Below the pieces are notes generated by a model, which saw only the letters and a program-made list of their open reading frames with translations, was not told the origin of the DNA and made no database searches. Below, piece after piece: positions 21,696-29,057 of a stretch of DNA of 29,057 bases. Origin of the DNA: a bacterium (lineage in GTDB: Bacteria > Patescibacteriota > Minisyncoccia > Minisyncoccales > CG1-02-41-26). The stretch covers positions 1 through 29,057 of the forward strand of contig JAGGTS010000031.1 in assembly GCA_021163625.1 (NCBI GenBank), written 5' to 3'. Each line of letters starts with the position of its first letter. The first letter of the stretch is position 1. Made by a program: the position numbers and the translations under genes.

Positions 21696-21935
21696 AAAAT
21701 TGTGCTCGCCAAGCAATATCTTGGGCTTGTGCTTACCCTTAAACCAAACTCTAAACTCTAATATCCAAATCCTAAACAAACCACAAATTCCAATGACCAA
21801 ATGTTTTTATTATTGGTCATTGGTCATTTTTTCGTCATTCGTCATTCGGGTTTCGTCATTTACAAACTATTTTGATTTGTGATTTGTAATTTAGAATTTG
21901 TTTAGAATTTAGAATTTAGGATTTAGGATTTCTAC

Positions 21936-21956
21936 CAACGAGTCCGGGTCTCGTTG
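21936..21956. repeat. CAACGAG-N7-CTCGTTG hairpin, copy without RT
   Basis: CAACGAG-TCCGGGT-CTCGTTG; same 21-mer at 27531-27551 (inverted) and 28807-28827. Confidence 0.95.
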
Positions 21957-21970
21957 ATAGACCTTCCCCC

Positions 21971-22050
21971 TGTCATTGCGAGGAACGAAGTGACGAAGCA
22001 ATCCCAGATTGCCGCGTCGTCCCGCTGAAAGCGGGGCTCCTCGCAAGGCA
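21971..22050. repeat. REP-like palindrome of TGTC/CGTC-ATTGCGAG type
   Basis: TGTCATTGCGAGGA...GAAGCAATC-CCA-GATTGC...CCCGCTGAAAGCGGG...TCCTCGCAAGGCA; inverted copy at 27437-27516. Confidence 0.8.
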
Positions 22051-22300
22051 GCGAAAAATGAAAAACTAAAAATGAAAAACTAAAATGCAAAATTAAAAGA
22101 GATTTTGAATTTTTAATCATTAATAATTTTCTTTGAAATAAAAGCCATGGCAGTTATTTCAAAGAAATTAAATTGGATGAAAAATCAAAAAAAGGGAAAT
22201 TTAGGATTTGTTTAGAATTTAGAATTTAGGATTTTTGTGCTTACCAAGGGTAAGCACAACTTTGTTTTGCGCAATTTTTTACGCCACATAAGGCCAAGCC

Positions 22301-22328
22301 TTGATTTTAGAAGGATAAATTTTATAAT
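22301..22328 (+). promoter_or_regulatory. Putative sigma70 promoter for ykuK-like/alaS cluster
   Basis: TTGATT-N16-TATAAT ending 5 nt before ATG 22334 (near-leaderless). Confidence 0.45.
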
Positions 22329-22333
22329 CAAAG

Positions 22334-22852
22334 ATGACCGATATAAAAAAACTTTCTTTTTACAACCCGAATTTGGGAGGAGTTAGTTTCAATGGAGTAG
22401 TAGAGCATGTTGTTGGCTACTTAAAAGAAGCGCCCGGGGAATTTTACGAGATTGTGGTTGGTTGCGATTCTTCTTCTGAAAAGGAGCCGGTTTTTCCAGT
22501 TGTTTTGGTTGTTTTGAGGGCAGGCAAAGGCGGAAGGTTTTTCATATCAAAAATTAGATTTAACCAGTCAAAGGAAAAAAAGTTTCATAATTTTCACCAA
22601 AGGATACTTCAAGAGGTTTTAATTTCCTGCGATGTCGCCTTAAATTTTAGAGAATCAATAGAAAAATCAGTTAAGAAGCTTAGCTTTCCTGTAAACTATA
22701 GGTTCCAATATATTCATGCAGATGTTGGCGCAGAAGGAAGGACAAAAGATATGATAAAAGAGGTAAGCGGATTGATTGAGAGCAACGGCTTTAAAGCAAA
22801 AATAAAGCCCGAATCATTTGCCGCTTCCATTGTCGCTGATAGGTTTACTTAA
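22334..22852 (+). CDS. RNase H-like YkuK/DUF458 family protein
   Basis: IVVGCDS, IHADVG, KIKPESFAASIVAD pattern recalled for this family. Confidence 0.8.
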   Translation: MTDIKKLSFYNPNLGGVSFNGVVEHVVGYLKEAPGEFYEIVVGCDSSSEKEPVFPVVLVVLRAGKGGRFFISKIRFNQSKEKKFHNFHQRILQEVLISCDVALNFRESIEKSVKKLSFPVNYRFQYIHADVGAEGRTKDMIKEVSGLIESNGFKAKIKPESFAASIVADRFT

Positions 22853-22872
22853 ATTGCCTTTGCTAAAAATAT

Positions 22873-24732
22873 ATGTTGCCTTCAGAAGAAATAAGAAAAA
22901 GTTTTTTGGATTTTTTCAAAGAAAAAGGGCATAAAATTGTTCCTTCTTCTTCCATTATTCCGGCAGACCCAACCTCTCTTTTTACTTCTGCGGGTATGCA
23001 ACAATTTGTTTTATACTTAAACGGGAGCAGAGATGTTTTAAGGGAGTTTGCGACAAGGCAGTTAGCTTCTTGCCAAAAGTGCGTCAGGACAGTTGACATA
23101 GAGGAAGTGGGCGATGATACTCACCATACTCTTTTTGAGATGCTTGGCAACTGGTCTATTGGCCAAGACCGAAATTCAGGTTATTTTAAAGAAAAAGCGA
23201 TTGAATATGCGCTTGAATTTTTTTGCGATAGATTAAAGTTTGATAAAAATAAACTGTGGATAACTTTTTTTAAAGGGGAAAAGGAAATACCCGCTGACAA
23301 GGAGGCTGTTCGTATATGGGAGAAAAACGGCATTCCAAAAGAAAGGATAAAAGGGTTTGGTTCCTCTGATAATTTTTGGGGGCCTGTTTCTGAAACAGGA
23401 CCCTGCGGCCCTTGTTCTGAAATACACTATGACAGGGGTGAGAAGTTTGGTTGCTCAAAACCCGGTTGCGGCCCAAATTGTCCCGATTGCAGCCGTTTTG
23501 TAGAGCTATGGAATCTTGTTTTTATGGAATACAATAAAGTTCACAGCAGCGCAAGTGGCAAGTTTTATTACGAGAAACTGCCTCAAAAAAGCATAGATAC
23601 AGGAATCGGTTTTGAGAGAATTGTCAGCATTATCCAAGAAAAAGACTCAGCTTATGAAACAGACCTTTTCTATCCATTGATAAAAATTATAGAAAAGATT
23701 TCGCAAAAGCCCTATGAAGACAACAAGAAAAATTTTAGGATATTAGCCGACCATCTAAGGGCAGTTTCTTTTATGATAGCCCAAGGCATTTTGCCAAACA
23801 ATTTAGGCAGGGGATATATATTAAGAAGGCTTTTAAGGAGAATTTACAGGACTGCGAATGTTTTAAGCCTTCCGTCTGGTTGGGAAAGAGAATGTATTGA
23901 TTGGATAGTTAAAAAATACAGCGGCGTTTACCCCGAGCTTTTGTCAGAAACAAATGATATTGTGATTGTCAGCAGCAAAGAATACGAAAAGTTTGGCAAG
24001 GCAATTAGGGAAGGAATGAAGTTCTTTGAAAAGTTGGTATCAGATAAATTAAAGAAAAAACTGCCAAAAGTTATTAAGGGCGAAGAAGCATTTTCCCTTT
24101 ATGAAACATACGGATTTCCTTTTGAATTTATCTTGCAATTAGCGGAGGAAAAAGGCTTTAAAGTGGACAAAGAAGGCTTTTTGAAGTGGTCTGGCAGGCA
24201 CCGTGAAATTTCCCGCAAGGGGGCAAAGAAAAAATTCGGAGGGCTTGGCATAGAAGAAATTACAAAAGAAGGCGATAGGATAAAAGTTACAAGGCTCCAT
24301 ACAGCGACGCATCTTCTTCAAGCAGCTTTGAGAAAAGTTTTAGGCAGCCAAGTTAAACAAATGGGTTCTGACATAAACCCCAAAAGGCTTCGTTTTGATT
24401 TTTCTTTCAGCAGGAAAATGACCCCCGAAGAAATTAAAAAAACTGAAGATTTGGTTAACAAAAAAATAAAACAGGCCCTAAAAGTAAAAGAGGAAAAAAT
24501 GCCCTTTAAAGAAGCAATAAATCAGGGGGCGCTTGCTTTCTTCAAGGAAAAGTATCCGGAAGTTGTAAGCGTTTATTCTATTTTTGACCAAAAGACAGGA
24601 GAAGTTTTTTCAAAAGAAGTTTGCGCTGGGCCCCATGCAAAAAGCACAAAGGAGCTTGGAAAATTCAAGATTATTAAAGAAGAGTCATCTTCGCGGGGCG
24701 TAAGGAGAATCCGCGCAGTTTTAGAACAATAA
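22873..24732 (+). CDS. alaS: Alanine--tRNA ligase, short form (619 aa)
   Basis: LFTSAGMQQF, QKCVR, HHTLFEMLGNWS, DTGIGFERI, editing HTATH and CAGPH. Confidence 0.97.
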   Translation: MLPSEEIRKSFLDFFKEKGHKIVPSSSIIPADPTSLFTSAGMQQFVLYLNGSRDVLREFATRQLASCQKCVRTVDIEEVGDDTHHTLFEMLGNWSIGQDRNSGYFKEKAIEYALEFFCDRLKFDKNKLWITFFKGEKEIPADKEAVRIWEKNGIPKERIKGFGSSDNFWGPVSETGPCGPCSEIHYDRGEKFGCSKPGCGPNCPDCSRFVELWNLVFMEYNKVHSSASGKFYYEKLPQKSIDTGIGFERIVSIIQEKDSAYETDLFYPLIKIIEKISQKPYEDNKKNFRILADHLRAVSFMIAQGILPNNLGRGYILRRLLRRIYRTANVLSLPSGWERECIDWIVKKYSGVYPELLSETNDIVIVSSKEYEKFGKAIREGMKFFEKLVSDKLKKKLPKVIKGEEAFSLYETYGFPFEFILQLAEEKGFKVDKEGFLKWSGRHREISRKGAKKKFGGLGIEEITKEGDRIKVTRLHTATHLLQAALRKVLGSQVKQMGSDINPKRLRFDFSFSRKMTPEEIKKTEDLVNKKIKQALKVKEEKMPFKEAINQGALAFFKEKYPEVVSVYSIFDQKTGEVFSKEVCAGPHAKSTKELGKFKIIKEESSSRGVRRIRAVLEQ

Positions 24733-24744
24733 AACTTAGCCAAA

Positions 24745-25917
24745 ATGAAATTTCCATTTGTTAAAAAAACAAAAGAAGAAAAGTTTTTAGCCTTGGATTT
24801 TAGCTACGAATATGTTTTTGCTGCGCTTTTTAGCAAGCGGAAAGGCGAAAAAGTAATAGAAAAGGTTGCTGTCCAGCCGATAGAGAAAATTGGCGTTTTT
24901 GAATACAGAGATTTTAATTTTGAGGTTGTAAAATCCGCTGTTGATAAAATTATCGCAAAATTTAAAATCAAAAAAAAGCTTCCAAAAATCAATGTAATTG
25001 CCAGTTTTCCTTCAGACGAACTTTTGCTTGAAACCGTTGATGTTTCCGTCAAAAGGGATAAGAGTGTTGAAAACGAAAAAATATCCGAGTCGCAGGCAAG
25101 CCAGATATACGAGCAGGTAAAACAAAAAGTAAGGGAAAAAGTTCTTGACAAGGCAAGGAGAATAAAAAGCGGATTTTATTCCGAAGATATAAGGATTATA
25201 AAAGAAAAGATATTGGAAGAAAAAATTTTAGGGTATAATGTTTCATCAATTGTGGGCTTTAGGGGAGGGAGTTTGAACTTTAAAGTTTTAGTTGTTTTCT
25301 GTTCTGCCTATCATTTTAATTTTATTGAAAAATTAAAAAATGCCCTTTTTATTAAAAAAATTGGAATTTACCACAAAGTTGAGGGCCTCTCTAATTTTGT
25401 AAAAGCTTATTCTGATTCGCCAGAAATTTTTATTGAAGTAGAGGAAAAGAACACTAATGTATTTTTGTTCAAAAAAAATTTGCAGTCTATTCTCTCTTTT
25501 AATCTCGGGACATTTGCCTTTTCAGACGCTCTTTCAAAGAATCTTAATCTTACAACAAAGGAAAGGCAGGAAATTGAACAAAGGTTTTTTTTGAAAGATT
25601 TAAGCGAAAGCAGTTTAGAAAGGATACGGGATATTATTTCTCTTCCCCTAAAAGAGTGGAGCGGAAAGCTTTCATCGTTGGTATTGAAAAATGCGCAAAG
25701 CTTTAATTTTTCCTGCAGGAAAATTTTTCTTTTTAGCGAACAAAATTATTTAGAAGAAGTCAAAAATTCCATTGAAAAGTCTGATTTGGTTTCAAAGCTG
25801 AGCCAGCTTGAAAAAATTTTTTACCTTTTGCCAAATGATTTGAAAATTAAAGTTAAGGGGAAAAACAATCTTGCGGCAAACTTTACGCCATTATTTTTGT
25901 TAGTTCTCGTTGTTTAA
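24745..25917 (+). CDS. FtsA/PilM-like actin-fold protein with degenerate ATP motifs
   Basis: FLALDFS at the phosphate-1 position, IFIEVEEKNT at phosphate-2, IFLFSE at the adenosine motif; length and synteny. Confidence 0.55.
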   Translation: MKFPFVKKTKEEKFLALDFSYEYVFAALFSKRKGEKVIEKVAVQPIEKIGVFEYRDFNFEVVKSAVDKIIAKFKIKKKLPKINVIASFPSDELLLETVDVSVKRDKSVENEKISESQASQIYEQVKQKVREKVLDKARRIKSGFYSEDIRIIKEKILEEKILGYNVSSIVGFRGGSLNFKVLVVFCSAYHFNFIEKLKNALFIKKIGIYHKVEGLSNFVKAYSDSPEIFIEVEEKNTNVFLFKKNLQSILSFNLGTFAFSDALSKNLNLTTKERQEIEQRFFLKDLSESSLERIRDIISLPLKEWSGKLSSLVLKNAQSFNFSCRKIFLFSEQNYLEEVKNSIEKSDLVSKLSQLEKIFYLLPNDLKIKVKGKNNLAANFTPLFLLVLVV

Positions 25918-25935
25918 TTTTAAAACCATAAAAAT

Positions 25936-27183
25936 ATGCAAGATAAAGTCATTGACATTTTGCCTCCCGAGGAAAGCAACCAGGAAAAGCGTTTAGAAAA
26001 GCACATTGAAATCAAAAAGAAAAAAGGGCATCGTTTTTTCGTTGTTATTTTGGTTTTATTGGCGCTTTCTTTTTCTGTTGTTTTCTTTTCTACCGCCTAT
26101 TCAAGCCTTAATATAAAACTTCAGATAGCCCAGAGGGAAGTTAGCATTCAAGACGAAATTGAAGCGGATGTCAGCCAGCTTTCAGTTGATTTTGACAAAA
26201 AGATAATACCAGCAAGGATTTTTAAATCAGAAAAAAAGGCGGTTAAAACATTCAAATCAACAGGCGAAAAAGAAGAACAGGGAAGGGCAGAGGGATTTAT
26301 CAGGATTTACAATAATAGCCGTTCCGGTTCGGTTGCCTTAAGGGCAAATACGCGGTTTCTTTCATCAAAAGGAGCAAAAATATTTACGATTCAAGACAAG
26401 GTAGTTATACCCCCCGCGCGCGTTGAAAACGGAAAAACAGTTGCCGGCTTTGTTGACGCGAAAGTTGTTGCCCAAAATCCGGGGCCTGATTACAACATAG
26501 GCCCGTCAAAGTTTTCTGTTCCGGGGTTAGTCGGCACTAATTATTATTATACTATTTGGGCAGAGTCAAAGAGCGATATGAAAGGCGGTTTTGCCAATAA
26601 AATTAGCATTGTTTCGCAAAATGATTTAGATAACGCAAAGAATAAACTGCAGGAAGAGTTAAGAGAAGAAGCAATCAGCCAGATAAAAAATGCGCTTGCC
26701 TCAAAATTTATTGTCCCAAAAGAAGCGTTTTCTGTTGATAATTTCCAATTTTCTTGCAACAAAGATGTCGGCGAACCAGCAGCAGAGTTTGAGTGCAGCG
26801 GCGACCTTTTAATGAAGGGAATAGGGTTTAAGCTTTCTGATATAAAAGACCTTGCTTCTTATCTTATCAAAAGCAATTATAAAAGTTTATCCGAAAAGCT
26901 TAGGGAAGAAACCGTTGTCCTTGATTATTATCCAAAAACTATTCTTCTAAAACAAGGAAAAGTTATTTTGTCTCTATCAGCAAAAGGCGACCTGTACAAA
27001 GCGATTGAAAAAGAAATACTTTTGTCGCAGATTATCGGCAAAGAAAGCAGCCAAATAGAAAGGGCTATTTTAAAAAGCTGTCCGCAGGCAGAGGGCGTAA
27101 AGCTTGAATTCCGGCCGTTCTGGGTTAAAAAGGCTCCAAAAAATCCCGAAAGAATTAAAATCCAGCCGGAATTTGCAGACTAA
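25936..27183 (+). CDS. Single-pass membrane protein with baseplate J/gp47-like domain
   Basis: TM helix at ~aa 34-54; GFIRIYN...LRANTRF...VIPPA...VVAQNPGPDYNIGP pattern. Confidence 0.65.
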   Translation: MQDKVIDILPPEESNQEKRLEKHIEIKKKKGHRFFVVILVLLALSFSVVFFSTAYSSLNIKLQIAQREVSIQDEIEADVSQLSVDFDKKIIPARIFKSEKKAVKTFKSTGEKEEQGRAEGFIRIYNNSRSGSVALRANTRFLSSKGAKIFTIQDKVVIPPARVENGKTVAGFVDAKVVAQNPGPDYNIGPSKFSVPGLVGTNYYYTIWAESKSDMKGGFANKISIVSQNDLDNAKNKLQEELREEAISQIKNALASKFIVPKEAFSVDNFQFSCNKDVGEPAAEFECSGDLLMKGIGFKLSDIKDLASYLIKSNYKSLSEKLREETVVLDYYPKTILLKQGKVILSLSAKGDLYKAIEKEILLSQIIGKESSQIERAILKSCPQAEGVKLEFRPFWVKKAPKNPERIKIQPEFAD

Positions 27184-27436
27184 ATTAAAAGTTGTGCTTA
27201 CCCTTTTTGTACTTGCCAAAGGCAAGCACAAAAATCCTAAATCCTAAATCCTAAATTCTAAACAAATTCTAAATTTCCCTTTTTTTGATTTTTCATCCAA
27301 TTTAATTTCTTTGAAATAACTGCCATGGCTTTTATTTCAAAGAAAATTATTAATGATTAAAAATTCAAAATCTCTTTTAATTTTGCATTTTCATTTTTCA
27401 TTTTTCATTTTTCATTTTTCGTTTTTCGTTTTTCGC

Positions 27437-27516
27437 TGCCTTGCGAGGAGCCCCGCTTTCAGCGGGACGACGCGGCAATCTGGGATTGCTTCGTCACTTC
27501 GTTCCTCGCAATGACA
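27437..27516. repeat. REP-like palindrome, second copy
   Basis: Reverse complement of 21971-22050. Confidence 0.8.
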
Positions 27517-27530
27517 GGGGGAAGGTTTAT

Positions 27531-27551
27531 CAACGAGACCCGGACTCGTTG
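27531..27551. repeat. CAACGAG-N7-CTCGTTG hairpin downstream of RT
   Basis: CAACGAG-ACCCGGA-CTCGTTG, 71 nt beyond the RT stop. Confidence 0.95.
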
Positions 27552-27622
27552 GTAGAATTCCAATAGTTTAGTAATTTGAATTTGGATGTTAGCTGACAGG
27601 TAGCGGATTTTAGATTGAATGT

Positions 27623-28795
27623 TTAAGTTTTGCGCCTGTTTTCTTTTTCCAGTTTTCTCTCAATTTTCCCGATTCTTCTTTCCAGTTTTTTCAGCAAACC
27701 AGTCAATTTTTTCAACTCCTCCAGAATTAATTTTTGTTCGTATTTGTAGCCTTTTTCCTCTAATTCCAGTTGGAAGTGTAAGGTTTGCTCGTCTGCCAGT
27801 TTTCGCGCCTTTTTAGCCATTTTCCGAAAAATATGCTTTTTTTTACAAGTATATTTTTCTTTTATTCCCAGAAGTGATTTTAAGCCGAGATTTTTTAGTA
27901 TTTTATTTGTCAGGAAAAGATTCCCTTCTTTGTTCCTGCTGTCTTTGTTCCGGCTTAAATAACGGCGTAATCTCATCCTGATAAAGCCATCAAGTTTTTC
28001 AAAAGTTCTTTTACAATGAGCGAATTTATAGTAGTGGCCAAAGCCCAAAATTTGGTTGTTTAAAGATTTGATGATTGCTTTTTGAGGTTTTTTTCTTGTT
28101 AAACGGGTTAATTTAATAATTTTCTTTTTAAAATTTTCAATTTTTTCTTCCTGAATCGTGAAATAACCGGCAAAAAAATAAAAACCGATAAAATTAACCT
28201 TATCTTGATGAAATTTTCCAGATTTTAATTTCTTTTCGTTTATTTCTAGATTTAATTCTGTTAATTTTGGCAAAATTAAGTTTTTGAGCAGAAATTCCGG
28301 CTCTTTCTTGTTTTTGCAAAAAACTAAATAATCATCCATCTGCCGAAGAAAAGGGTTTTTAAGGTTTAAGTCTAAATCCAAAAGAAAAACACTTGCTAAA
28401 ACCCAAGAAAGACGAGAACCGATTGATAGCCCTTTGCCATAGGGTGATTGAGATAAAAAGATTGGAATTTCATTTTTCAGATATTTTTTAAATCTTCTTG
28501 AGGGTTGCTTATGCTGGATTTTTTGATAAATCTCAGACATTTTTTTCAGGAGAATTTGATGATTGATGGAGGGATAATAAAGCCGAATATCAAAACGCAA
28601 AAAATAGGGATATTTTTTGGAAGTTTCTTTGACAAAGTTCAGGGCTTTGGACGGAATCGGCTGAATTAAAAAATGCTGAGGAAATTTTTCTTTTATTCTT
28701 GGCCTGAATTTCCGCAATAAAAAATCAGCCAGAAGTTTTTCCTCGGGTTTTTTGCGGGCTTTAAAATAAGGAAGATTATTTGTATTTTTAGGCAT
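27623..28795 (-). CDS. Reverse transcriptase with group II intron maturase-like thumb, N-terminally short
   Basis: RT3 FLRFDIRLYYPSINH, RT4 GLSIGSRLSWVLASVFL, RT5 FLRQMDDYLVF, RT7 VNFIGF, thumb LNNQILGFGHYYK...LDGFIRMRLRRYL. Confidence 0.9.
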   Translation of the reverse strand: MPKNTNNLPYFKARKKPEEKLLADFLLRKFRPRIKEKFPQHFLIQPIPSKALNFVKETSKKYPYFLRFDIRLYYPSINHQILLKKMSEIYQKIQHKQPSRRFKKYLKNEIPIFLSQSPYGKGLSIGSRLSWVLASVFLLDLDLNLKNPFLRQMDDYLVFCKNKKEPEFLLKNLILPKLTELNLEINEKKLKSGKFHQDKVNFIGFYFFAGYFTIQEEKIENFKKKIIKLTRLTRKKPQKAIIKSLNNQILGFGHYYKFAHCKRTFEKLDGFIRMRLRRYLSRNKDSRNKEGNLFLTNKILKNLGLKSLLGIKEKYTCKKKHIFRKMAKKARKLADEQTLHFQLELEEKGYKYEQKLILEELKKLTGLLKKLERRIGKIERKLEKENRRKT

Positions 28796-28806
28796 ATAAC
28801 GTTTAT

Positions 28807-28827
28807 CAACGAGTCCGGGTCTCGTTG
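28807..28827. repeat. CAACGAG-N7-CTCGTTG hairpin upstream of RT
   Basis: CAACGAG-TCCGGGT-CTCGTTG, 11 nt from the RT start codon. Confidence 0.95.
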
Positions 28828-28899
28828 GTTAATTTGTTTGTAATTTGTAATTTAGGATTTGTTTAGAATTTAGGATTTAGGATTTGAGATTTAACATTT

Positions 28900-29057
28900 T
28901 GTGTTTACCCTTGGCAAGCGCACATCCTGAGCAACTTATTTTTCAGAGATTGGGTCGCTGGGAAAAACCCGAATTCCTAAATCCGAAACCCGAAAAAATA
29001 CCAAATTCCCAATGACCAAATGTTTTTATTATTGGTCATTGGTCATTTTTTCGTCAT
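28900..29057. repeat. Palindrome-bounded element, copy D (inverted copy of A, runs off window)
   Basis: Reverse complement of ~232-385 with a few substitutions; shares the 28900-28922 palindrome with copy C. Confidence 0.92.

Follow-up and report, generated by a model that had tools for sequence, protein, structure and literature searches.

A putative REP-like palindrome family in Patescibacteria and the probable chance position of a UG38 reverse transcriptase gene between two of its copies

Introduction

The REP/REPIN–RAYT systems of Proteobacteria are the closest known counterpart of the repeat analysed here. Like these, it is a short imperfect palindrome with many dispersed copies, which lie mostly just after genes and occur as singles and doublets; at some metagenome loci inverted copies of it stand on both sides of a gene for an IS200-related Y1/HUH transposase, and chimeric forms are seen that point to recombination between copies. 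It differs from them in its patescibacterial host, in a transposase that is distantly related, in a host genome where no RAYT was found, in a low copy number (4 to 19), and in copies that stand in frame, both inside some of the RAYT-like genes and in housekeeping genes. REP elements of the E. coli type have a conserved GTAG tetranucleotide 5' of the hairpin, whereas the present repeat has no conserved 5' GTAG; here a GTAG stands 3' of the hairpin, in the host genome only, and is absent in two genomes of sister genera (G004 and G022). The Rickettsia palindromic elements (RPE), which are palindromic selfish DNA of about 100 to 150 nt, are inserted in frame in essential protein genes. The hairpin described here is likewise palindromic DNA tolerated in frame in essential genes, but it measures 21 nt (7 codons), reads T(R/S)PGLV on either strand, and is linked to a Y1 transposase.

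In the REPIN systems, REPINs are inverted REP doublets, RAYT genes are flanked by REPs, and chimeric REP forms are known (PMC3337134). Small hairpin-loop inversions have been described in plastids, where the loop is reverse-complemented between short inverted repeats while stem and flanks stay in place (PMC9887819). [quoted passage not shown] 2022, PMC9226505).

Results

The window, by which we mean the whole stretch of 29,057 nt that was analysed, is contig C57 of a genome of 579 kb (68 contigs, 93% complete), and the homologs of its proteins come from named Patescibacteria. Towards its right end an RT gene of 390 aa on the minus strand (27623..28795) stands between two hairpin units. The left unit (27525..27553, plus strand) reads GTTTAT-CAACGAG-ACCCGGA-CTCGTTG-GT and is a canonical REP-like copy, laid out as the copies on contig C11 and at 21936; its core (27531-27551) has the loop ACCCGGA on the plus strand, is followed by GTAGAA, and forms the outer end of a repeat module, Y'. 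The right unit (28801..28829, minus strand), GTTTAT-CAACGAG-TCCGGGT-CTCGTTG-GT, is the odd copy, in that its immediate flanks are direct repeats of the left unit's, while the loop of its core (28807-28827), TCCGGGT on the plus strand, is ACCCGGA on the RT strand. The two 7-nt loops are exact reverse complements, and flanks and 7-bp stems are common to both units, just as a preliminary description of this DNA had it. A third core (21936..21956, minus strand), at the outer end of module Y, is the mirror image of the left unit; it had been described as the left isomer, which holds once it and its flanking module are reverse-complemented. In the window, CAACGAG-N7-CTCGTTG matches three times, against 0.00 expected (100 shuffles).

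Between the RT open reading frame and the two hairpins there are 11 and 71 nt. The ATG at 28795, said earlier to be 5 nt from the hairpin, is at that distance from the end of the right unit and 11 nt from the stem proper. On the RT strand the left and right cores are perfect 21-nt reverse complements, where shuffled flanks give 7.2 nt on average and 11 nt at most. Folding predictions for single-stranded DNA give each unit a stem of 7 to 10 bp that closes a 7-nt loop, with an energy of about -6 to -7 kcal/mol and a z of about -2.5; for the left unit the energy is -6.4 kcal/mol. An intrinsic terminator was considered and rejected, as a T-rich tail follows the right unit alone (plus strand) and most copies have none.

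The element as a whole is a near-perfect palindrome of about 27 bp around a central C/G, TAT-CAACGAG-ACC C GGA-CTCGTTG-GTA, whose direction is set only by loop positions 1, 4 and 7 and by the T/G pair that adjoins the stem. Aligned with direct flanks and a flipped loop, the two window units agree at 26/29 positions, and in a plain inverted alignment at 25/29; with an element so nearly palindromic, a flip of the loop is convincing only together with the population variant that is described below.

Two loop isomers bear a formal likeness to the flip and flop of parvovirus ITRs, and hairpin-primed or rolling-hairpin replication of a linear element had been suggested as their source. That likeness is the one argument for it, and we give the idea almost no credence: unlike parvovirus ITRs or poxvirus telomeres, the hairpins lie within a 29-kb chromosomal contig with translation genes (a ribosomal-protein operon and alaS) and are not replicon ends, each site has one isomer, no Rep or nickase gene was found, and the copies are dispersed over seven contigs.

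The 21-bp core CAACGAG-ACCCGGA-CTCGTTG occurs nine times in the 579 kb of the host genome (0 times for a reversed control pattern), spread over those seven contigs, and five of the copies lie within about 220 nt of a contig end. All nine are intergenic and mostly single, and in most cases the copy follows a gene and points the same way as that gene; the layout xTAT-core(ACCCGGA)-GTAGAA, continued by heptamer arrays of the AAATCCT type, is common to eight. Further copies, which the preliminary description had counted on for its own reading, thus do exist, yet they point to a REP-type repeat and away from the RT. The hairpin is one module of a mosaic intergenic repeat family, together with a 23-bp palindrome, an X module (about 175 nt, at least 15 genomic copies) and the Y module. 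In the window, Y (21926..22279) and Y' (27187..27561, ending in the left hairpin) are the left and right arms of an inverted repeat of about 350 bp, 94-97% complementary over most of the arm and 75% in the innermost 69 nt, which encloses an RNaseH-like gene, alaS and two unknown genes. Further modules occupy 28837..29057: positions 28837-28892 are a heptamer array, a 23-bp palindrome in degenerate form lies at about 28899-28922, and the X module fills 28965-29057, up to the end of the contig. The repeat explains why the MAG breaks into contigs at repeat modules.

The identical 21-nt core, loop included, is present 19 times in G004, from another genus of the same family, and four times in G022; such identity of a 21-bp core across genera is an unusual trait. 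In G004, 19/19 copies have one polarity when referred to a short motif that directly precedes the core, and a long flank downstream is common to 14 of them. The copies in G022 have TAT-core-ATA flanks. When 300 genomes were sampled evenly from the class, only one more had the exact core, so that its distribution is patchy. A scan of metagenomes with the core, loop ends left free, gave more than 120 stretches. Among the matches listed, the oriented loops were ACCCGGC (66), ACCCGGA (26) and GCCCGGC (7), which is far from random, and the flanks often extend the palindrome with locus-specific sequence. Inverted doublets were seen at loci L081, L086 and L139, and direct doublets at L083, L095 and L112. 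Of 104 metagenome copies, 38 lie inside open frames of 150 codons or more, among them those for LepA, TsaD and Mur ligases; in-frame copies are tolerated in essential genes, since T(R/S)PGLV is read from either strand and none of the frames contains a stop. No relevant known RNA family was found by Rfam in 20 hairpin-bearing loci.

Among the 80 metagenome loci that were fetched, 15 encode a Y1_Tnp protein of about 235 aa with an HUH motif (NHFHLL) and a Y motif (YxHxNP). Three of these proteins were tested against Pfam and scored above the cut-off (PF01797); for two that were tested, the best NCBIfam model was 'REP-associated tyrosine transposase' at an E-value of 1e-8, which is below the cut-off (35 bits for NF047646, against a cut-off of 80). 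A sequence search of the PDB with the RAYT-like protein gave no match. Repeats flank the Y1 transposase gene at five loci (L106, L150, L121, L095 and L087). At the first four, one hairpin lies 3 to 15 nt past the transposase stop codon, a second in the opposite orientation upstream, and a third in frame inside the gene, where it codes for QRDPASL. This internal copy is 21/21 identical in the four genes, without a synonymous change, while the proteins are about 58 to 76% identical (tblastn) and the neighbouring codons differ, which implies constraint at the DNA level. The loop of the copies next to the RAYT-like genes is ACCCGGC, not ACCCGGA.

Since this layout is like that of RAYT genes flanked by REPs (PMC3337134), we take the hairpin to be a REP-type element that belongs to a RAYT-like family in the CPR. 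For the host organism itself, the link to a transposase would run through homology of the repeat: a RAYT-like gene was not found in the host assembly (93% complete, 68 contigs) with PF01797, a RAYT-like protein query or tblastn, nor a Y1_Tnp gene in the assembly of G004, so that the copies in both would be either orphans or partners of a transposase gene that went unassembled. In G022 and in G019, four RAYT-like genes are present, from a subfamily that lacks the internal copy. A literature search found no paper that links RAYT or REPIN with Patescibacteria, and the REP-like palindrome family, with its unusual in-frame copies, looks new to CPR bacteria.

The RT gene is intact and single-copy in the assembly (tblastn). 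Its product matches the PADLOC model RT_UG38 with an E-value of 5.5e-159 over profile positions 1-309 of 309, contains the Pfam domains RVT_1 and GIIM (E 7.9e-14 for GIIM), and has the catalytic residues D69, D154 and D155, which are invariant in alignment A1. In this full-length match, in its CPR host and in having no fused known domain it is like other UG38 RTs (PMC9226505). The GIIM maturase (X) domain is shared with group II intron RTs; unlike these, the locus has no ribozyme domains by Rfam. A group II intron was rejected, as no Rfam intron family was found in the window at the gathering score or at E up to 5; the model TIGR04416 (group II intron RT/maturase) gave 104 bits, far below its cut-off of 300.

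More than 190 homologs of the RT were found, from named Patescibacteria. The hairpin motif, with up to 3 mismatches, is absent from the 18 homolog loci that were examined, and the longest 5'/3' inverted repeat at these loci is 6 to 11 nt, like shuffles, against 21 nt here; around some homologs the intergenic DNA measures just 15 to 20 nt per side. Flanking hairpins are thus peculiar to the RT locus of the window, while the RT itself is no different from the UG38 group, and the hairpin as a feature of UG38 RTs was ruled out. RT and repeat also occur independently of each other in the opposite direction of search. No RT was found in any of the 80 hairpin-bearing metagenome loci, and of the two sister genera with the core, one has no UG38-type RT that we could find (G004) and the other a distant RT only; the hairpin is absent in G019, which has a 59%-identical RT. 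The special tie between hairpins and RT, a clamp on the gene as the preliminary description had put it, is contradicted by these findings, both by the homologs without such flanks and by the 19 cores of G004.

Some other features of the RT loci may be mentioned. RT homologs often have a different downstream motif, GGTTGACCCTTGGGCAAGG, which is single-copy in G019 and has its host copy on contig C3, away from the RT; no tie of this motif to the hairpin was established. The lepB synteny of close RT homologs is not conserved at the window's locus. Several homologs have a TATAAT at 8 to 10 nt from the ATG, on its 5' side, and their mRNAs may thus be leaderless.

Other class 2 UG/Abi RTs work with adjacent ncRNAs, and an RNA role could be imagined here, in which the 5' hairpin (loop ACCCGGA) and the 3' hairpin (loop UCCGGGU) pair through a kissing contact or as a 21-bp panhandle, and so control translation or supply the RT with a template or primer. 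The cores are indeed fully complementary over their 21 nt, and the hairpin is 11 nt from the ATG with no Shine-Dalgarno sequence between. We nevertheless hold such a role to be very unlikely, because the RT homologs do without the element and the hairpin is abundant in G004, where a UG38 RT was not found; if the mRNA is leaderless here as well, the 5' hairpin would lie outside the transcript.

A further reading makes the RT the cargo of a REP-bounded unit, in effect a REPIN with a 1.25-kb spacer, mobilised now or once by a RAYT-like transposase acting in trans. The perfect 21-nt inverted repeat around the RT fits it, as does the bracketing of RAYT-like genes themselves by inverted copies, in keeping with REPINs as inverted REP doublets (PMC3337134). 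The depth of the RT gene is about a quarter to a third of that of the neighbouring gene in metagenome runs X1 and X3, which hints at a presence/absence polymorphism. However, the polarity of the copies is (+,-) around the RT and (-,+) around the RAYT-like genes; the 5.6-kb alaS segment (21936-27551) has the (-,+) arrangement. No RAYT was found in the host genome, the RT is single-copy, no examined RT homolog is bounded in this way, and the spacers of REPINs are short. We regard the cargo reading as improbable, and we think just as little of the chance that the RT is a REP-bounded cassette that a Y1/HUH transposase or the lone Xer-like recombinase of the host could move, excise or invert. If it were true, such a cassette would let a defence-type RT spread among ultra-small CPR genomes, carried by a REP system.

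The evidence on the flipped loop itself comes from a 420-nt contig of run X1, which equals 28516-28827 without a difference and then continues with ATAGAATTCCAATAA, eleven more bases, and the start of a second hairpin. Directly 3' of the left hairpin in the window stands the 15-mer GTAGAATTCCAATAG (27552..27566, plus strand), and ATAGAATTCCAATAA, which follows the RT-proximal hairpin in the variant, is identical to it at 13/15 positions in direct order; the 13-mer core of this 15-mer is unique in the genome. On the other side of the flipped loop, AACGTTTAT and AAGGTTTAT are 8/9 identical. The flipped loop of the variant is thus surrounded by direct-order repeats of 6 to 9 nt on one side and 15 nt on the other, and GTTTAT is the end of the non-palindromic Y module, whose same end occurs without a hairpin at C65:14167. 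Altogether a block of about 45 nt is directly repeated on both sides of the RT in the variant with about six differences, three of which exactly reverse-complement the loop, so that random substitution is a very unlikely source. An independent contig, from run X2, spans 28547-28896 and has the single hairpin upstream of the RT that the window has; this form looks like a deletion between the two tandem hairpins of the variant.

Against a flip it can be held that the right unit is a normal copy in the opposite orientation, and that its palindromic AT-rich flanks (TAT...ATA/GTA) mimic direct repeats. The near tie of 26/29 and 25/29 would agree with this, as would the TAT-core-ATA flanks in G022; moreover, the array side of the right copy matches the copy on C67 in the orientation given by the loop, and the outer 12 nt of the flanks are unmatched between the two window units. 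The 13/15 direct match of ATAGAATTCCAATAA, with a core that is unique in the genome, the 8/9 match on the other side, and the origin of GTTTAT in a non-palindromic module speak against it, and we regard it as unlikely. From these sequence comparisons, the inversion of the loop relative to both flanks is probably real.

An inversion that once took place is not the same as a working switch. The preliminary description had proposed that a tyrosine recombinase inverts the RT, and a switch of this kind, in which an Xer-like enzyme acts at sites with opposed 7-bp spacers and turns RT expression on or off, is formally attractive: like loxP/FRT-type sites and invertible promoters, the two units have inverted arms (10 bp) and an asymmetric 7-bp spacer, and they lie around a gene with their spacers opposed. 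Inversion would yield a GTAGAA-flanked site like the other copies together with a perfect 13-7-13 site, and each of three hairpin-carrying genomes has one tyrosine recombinase. In the host this single Xer-like enzyme is encoded on contig C37; no recombinase gene is in the window, so that unlike loxP/FRT-type systems none adjoins the locus, and no serine recombinase or resolvase was found in the host genome. The sites are also multicopy, and nine to nineteen active ones per 0.6-Mb genome would scramble the chromosome.

Active flipping was looked for in the assembled contigs of four vent metagenome runs; as contigs drop rare variants, flipped loops or inverted RTs at low frequency would be missed in these data. 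At both sites the contigs gave no alternative letters at the loop positions. RT inversion should create the junction Y'-GTTTAT-core-ATAAACGTTAT-ATG, and neither this junction nor an opposite-strand joint linking both hairpins was present in the contigs of the four runs. Opposite-strand joints from 27531 to 28896 and from 27000 to 27188 were considered as signs of RT inversion and rejected, the explanation being other repeat copies and the 350-bp inverted repeat. A metagenome scan for the 5' junction of the RT, CTCGTTGATAAACGTTATATG, gave no match and says nothing on either state. Three genomes and the metagenome loci supplied 140 copies with full flanks; among these, 63 pairs whose flanks match on both sides and 165 pairs that match on one side could be compared, and in every pair the polarity is the same. 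At contig level in four runs, orientation is therefore fixed, with one isomer per site; the loop flip looks static, a single fixed mini-inversion and not a working gene switch. Neither the recombinase switch, which we take to be most improbable, nor the coexistence of both isomers at a locus finds a trace here, and of the flip/flop that had been claimed, what stands is a probably real inversion.

Discussion

We favour, with some confidence, the reading that the hairpins belong to a REP-like family of mobile palindromes, that the RT is unrelated to them and lies between copies of opposite polarity by chance, and that the loop was inverted in a single event and then fixed. The hairpins would be copies of a mobile palindrome with the core CAACGAG-ACCCGG(A/C)-CTCGTTG that has populated the intergenic regions of the host, and elsewhere the same repeat would serve as the recognition hairpin of an IS200-related Y1 (HUH) 'RAYT-like' transposase. 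The UG38-class RT would be a single-copy gene that happens to sit between two such copies. At the RT-proximal copy, the loop would have inverted once relative to its flanks, through template switching or recombination across the 7-bp stem as in the plastid hairpin-loop inversions, or else by gene conversion from one of the many inverted copies, and would have remained so since. Unlike the plastid case, it concerns a multicopy repeat on a bacterial chromosome, and it is a single case among about 140 copies. What the data show is the repeat family, its association with a transposase elsewhere, its independence of the RT and the uniform polarity of every other copy; the mechanism of the flip and its lack of function are matters that we infer.

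Chance placement leaves unexplained why, in the variant, about 45 nt are directly repeated around the RT. It is also worth mentioning that exactly the three asymmetric loop positions differ (27538, 27541 and 27544 on the left, 28814, 28817 and 28820 on the right), which makes the inverted repeats at the two ends of the gene perfect over 21 nt, and this could be a result of selection. The 45-nt repeat, the low depth of the RT gene and the perfect ends leave room for a cassette-like history, with gain or loss by recombination at the hairpin, or for an RNA panhandle, each of which we would rate as improbable at best.

With hairpins that stand outside any retroelement, the locus offers no basis for inferring how UG38 RTs are primed or how they move. 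Its interest lies little in the RT locus and mainly in the repeat family, which has the look of a REP/RAYT-type system among bacteria of the Candidate Phyla Radiation.

Downstream motif, neighbours and depth of the UG38 reverse transcriptase

Homologs of the UG38-class reverse transcriptase (RT) share a motif of ~25 nt, with the consensus CCAAGGGTTGACCCTTGGGCAAGGA, located 35 to 190 nt 3' of the stop codon; the motif was found downstream of the RT at loci L010, L012, L013, L015, L016, L017, L021, L022, L028, L032, L035, L050, L076, and L077, and the hairpin within it is broken at some homolog loci. Genome G019 carries one copy, and the sole copy in the genome containing the window is on another contig (C3:2637-2655), away from the RT. 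It may represent an element, RNA or DNA, that is associated with the RT.

Close RT homologs lie at seven loci (L032, L033, L034, L075, L076, L077, and L035). A divergent Peptidase_S26 (signal-peptidase) gene adjoins the RT at a distance of 20 to 50 nt in five of them, a synteny that is not kept in the window. All seven have a TATAAT-like box ~5 to 10 nt upstream of the ATG, suggesting that the mRNAs of these homologs are leaderless.

In hydrothermal-vent metagenome run X1, contig depth was 6 to 9 over the RT (window 27621-28793) as compared to 25.6 over a neighbouring gene (27000-27137); the corresponding values in run X3 were 3 and 10. Either a presence/absence polymorphism of the gene or the splitting of strains may lie behind the low RT depth.

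Hairpins in and around RAYT-like transposase genes

We found the 21-nt hairpin core in frame inside four RAYT-like Y1 transposase genes, L106:3226-3927 (-), L121:296-1003 (+), L095:1473-2036 (+), and L087:1866-2570 (-), where it encodes QRDPASL near residue 60. The internal hairpin is identical (21/21) among the four, whose proteins share ~58 to 76% identity (tblastn). Additional hairpin copies are present at both ends of these genes. The 11,444-nt metagenome contig L150 bears at its two ends inverted copies of one ~1-kb block, each with the RAYT-like gene and three hairpins; the arrangement may represent an element bounded by long terminal inverted repeats, or else an assembly artefact.

In the window, ~350-bp inverted repeats enclose a 5.6-kb segment (21926-27561) with an RNaseH-like gene, alaS, and two unknown genes. 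A hairpin lies at the end of each repeat, and the pair has the (-,+) polarity also seen around RAYT-like genes. At 27440-27524 and 21957-22050, the Y module of the repeat arms holds CATTGCGAGGAACGAAGTGACGAAGCAATC as a motif together with a hairpin capped by GAAA, CCCGCTGAAAGCGGG; no match to an Rfam family was obtained.

Hairpin cores in coding sequences and a possible transposase origin of G004 repeats

The core has no stop codon in any frame, and frame 2 on both strands reads T(R/S)PGLV. In-frame copies occur in genes for LepA (two), TsaD (two), Mur ligases (two), a TPP enzyme, a DegT aminotransferase, PPDK, and an O-antigen ligase (L148:664-2589, L160:2-1099, L130:5892-7238, L142:333-1574, L089:23-1417, L136:8289-9644, L147, L116, L082, and L086). 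Such copies in housekeeping genes resemble Rickettsia palindromic elements, although the hairpin core spans only 7 codons.

Several copies in the related genome G004 (L059, L060, L062, L064, L066, and L069) have the left flank ...TTTTGGCATTCTTGT-core. Its translation, FWHSCQRDPDSLLF-stop, is similar to RAFWxQRDPASL, a stretch within the RAYT-like protein. The G004 repeats may be descendants of a transposase gene fragment.
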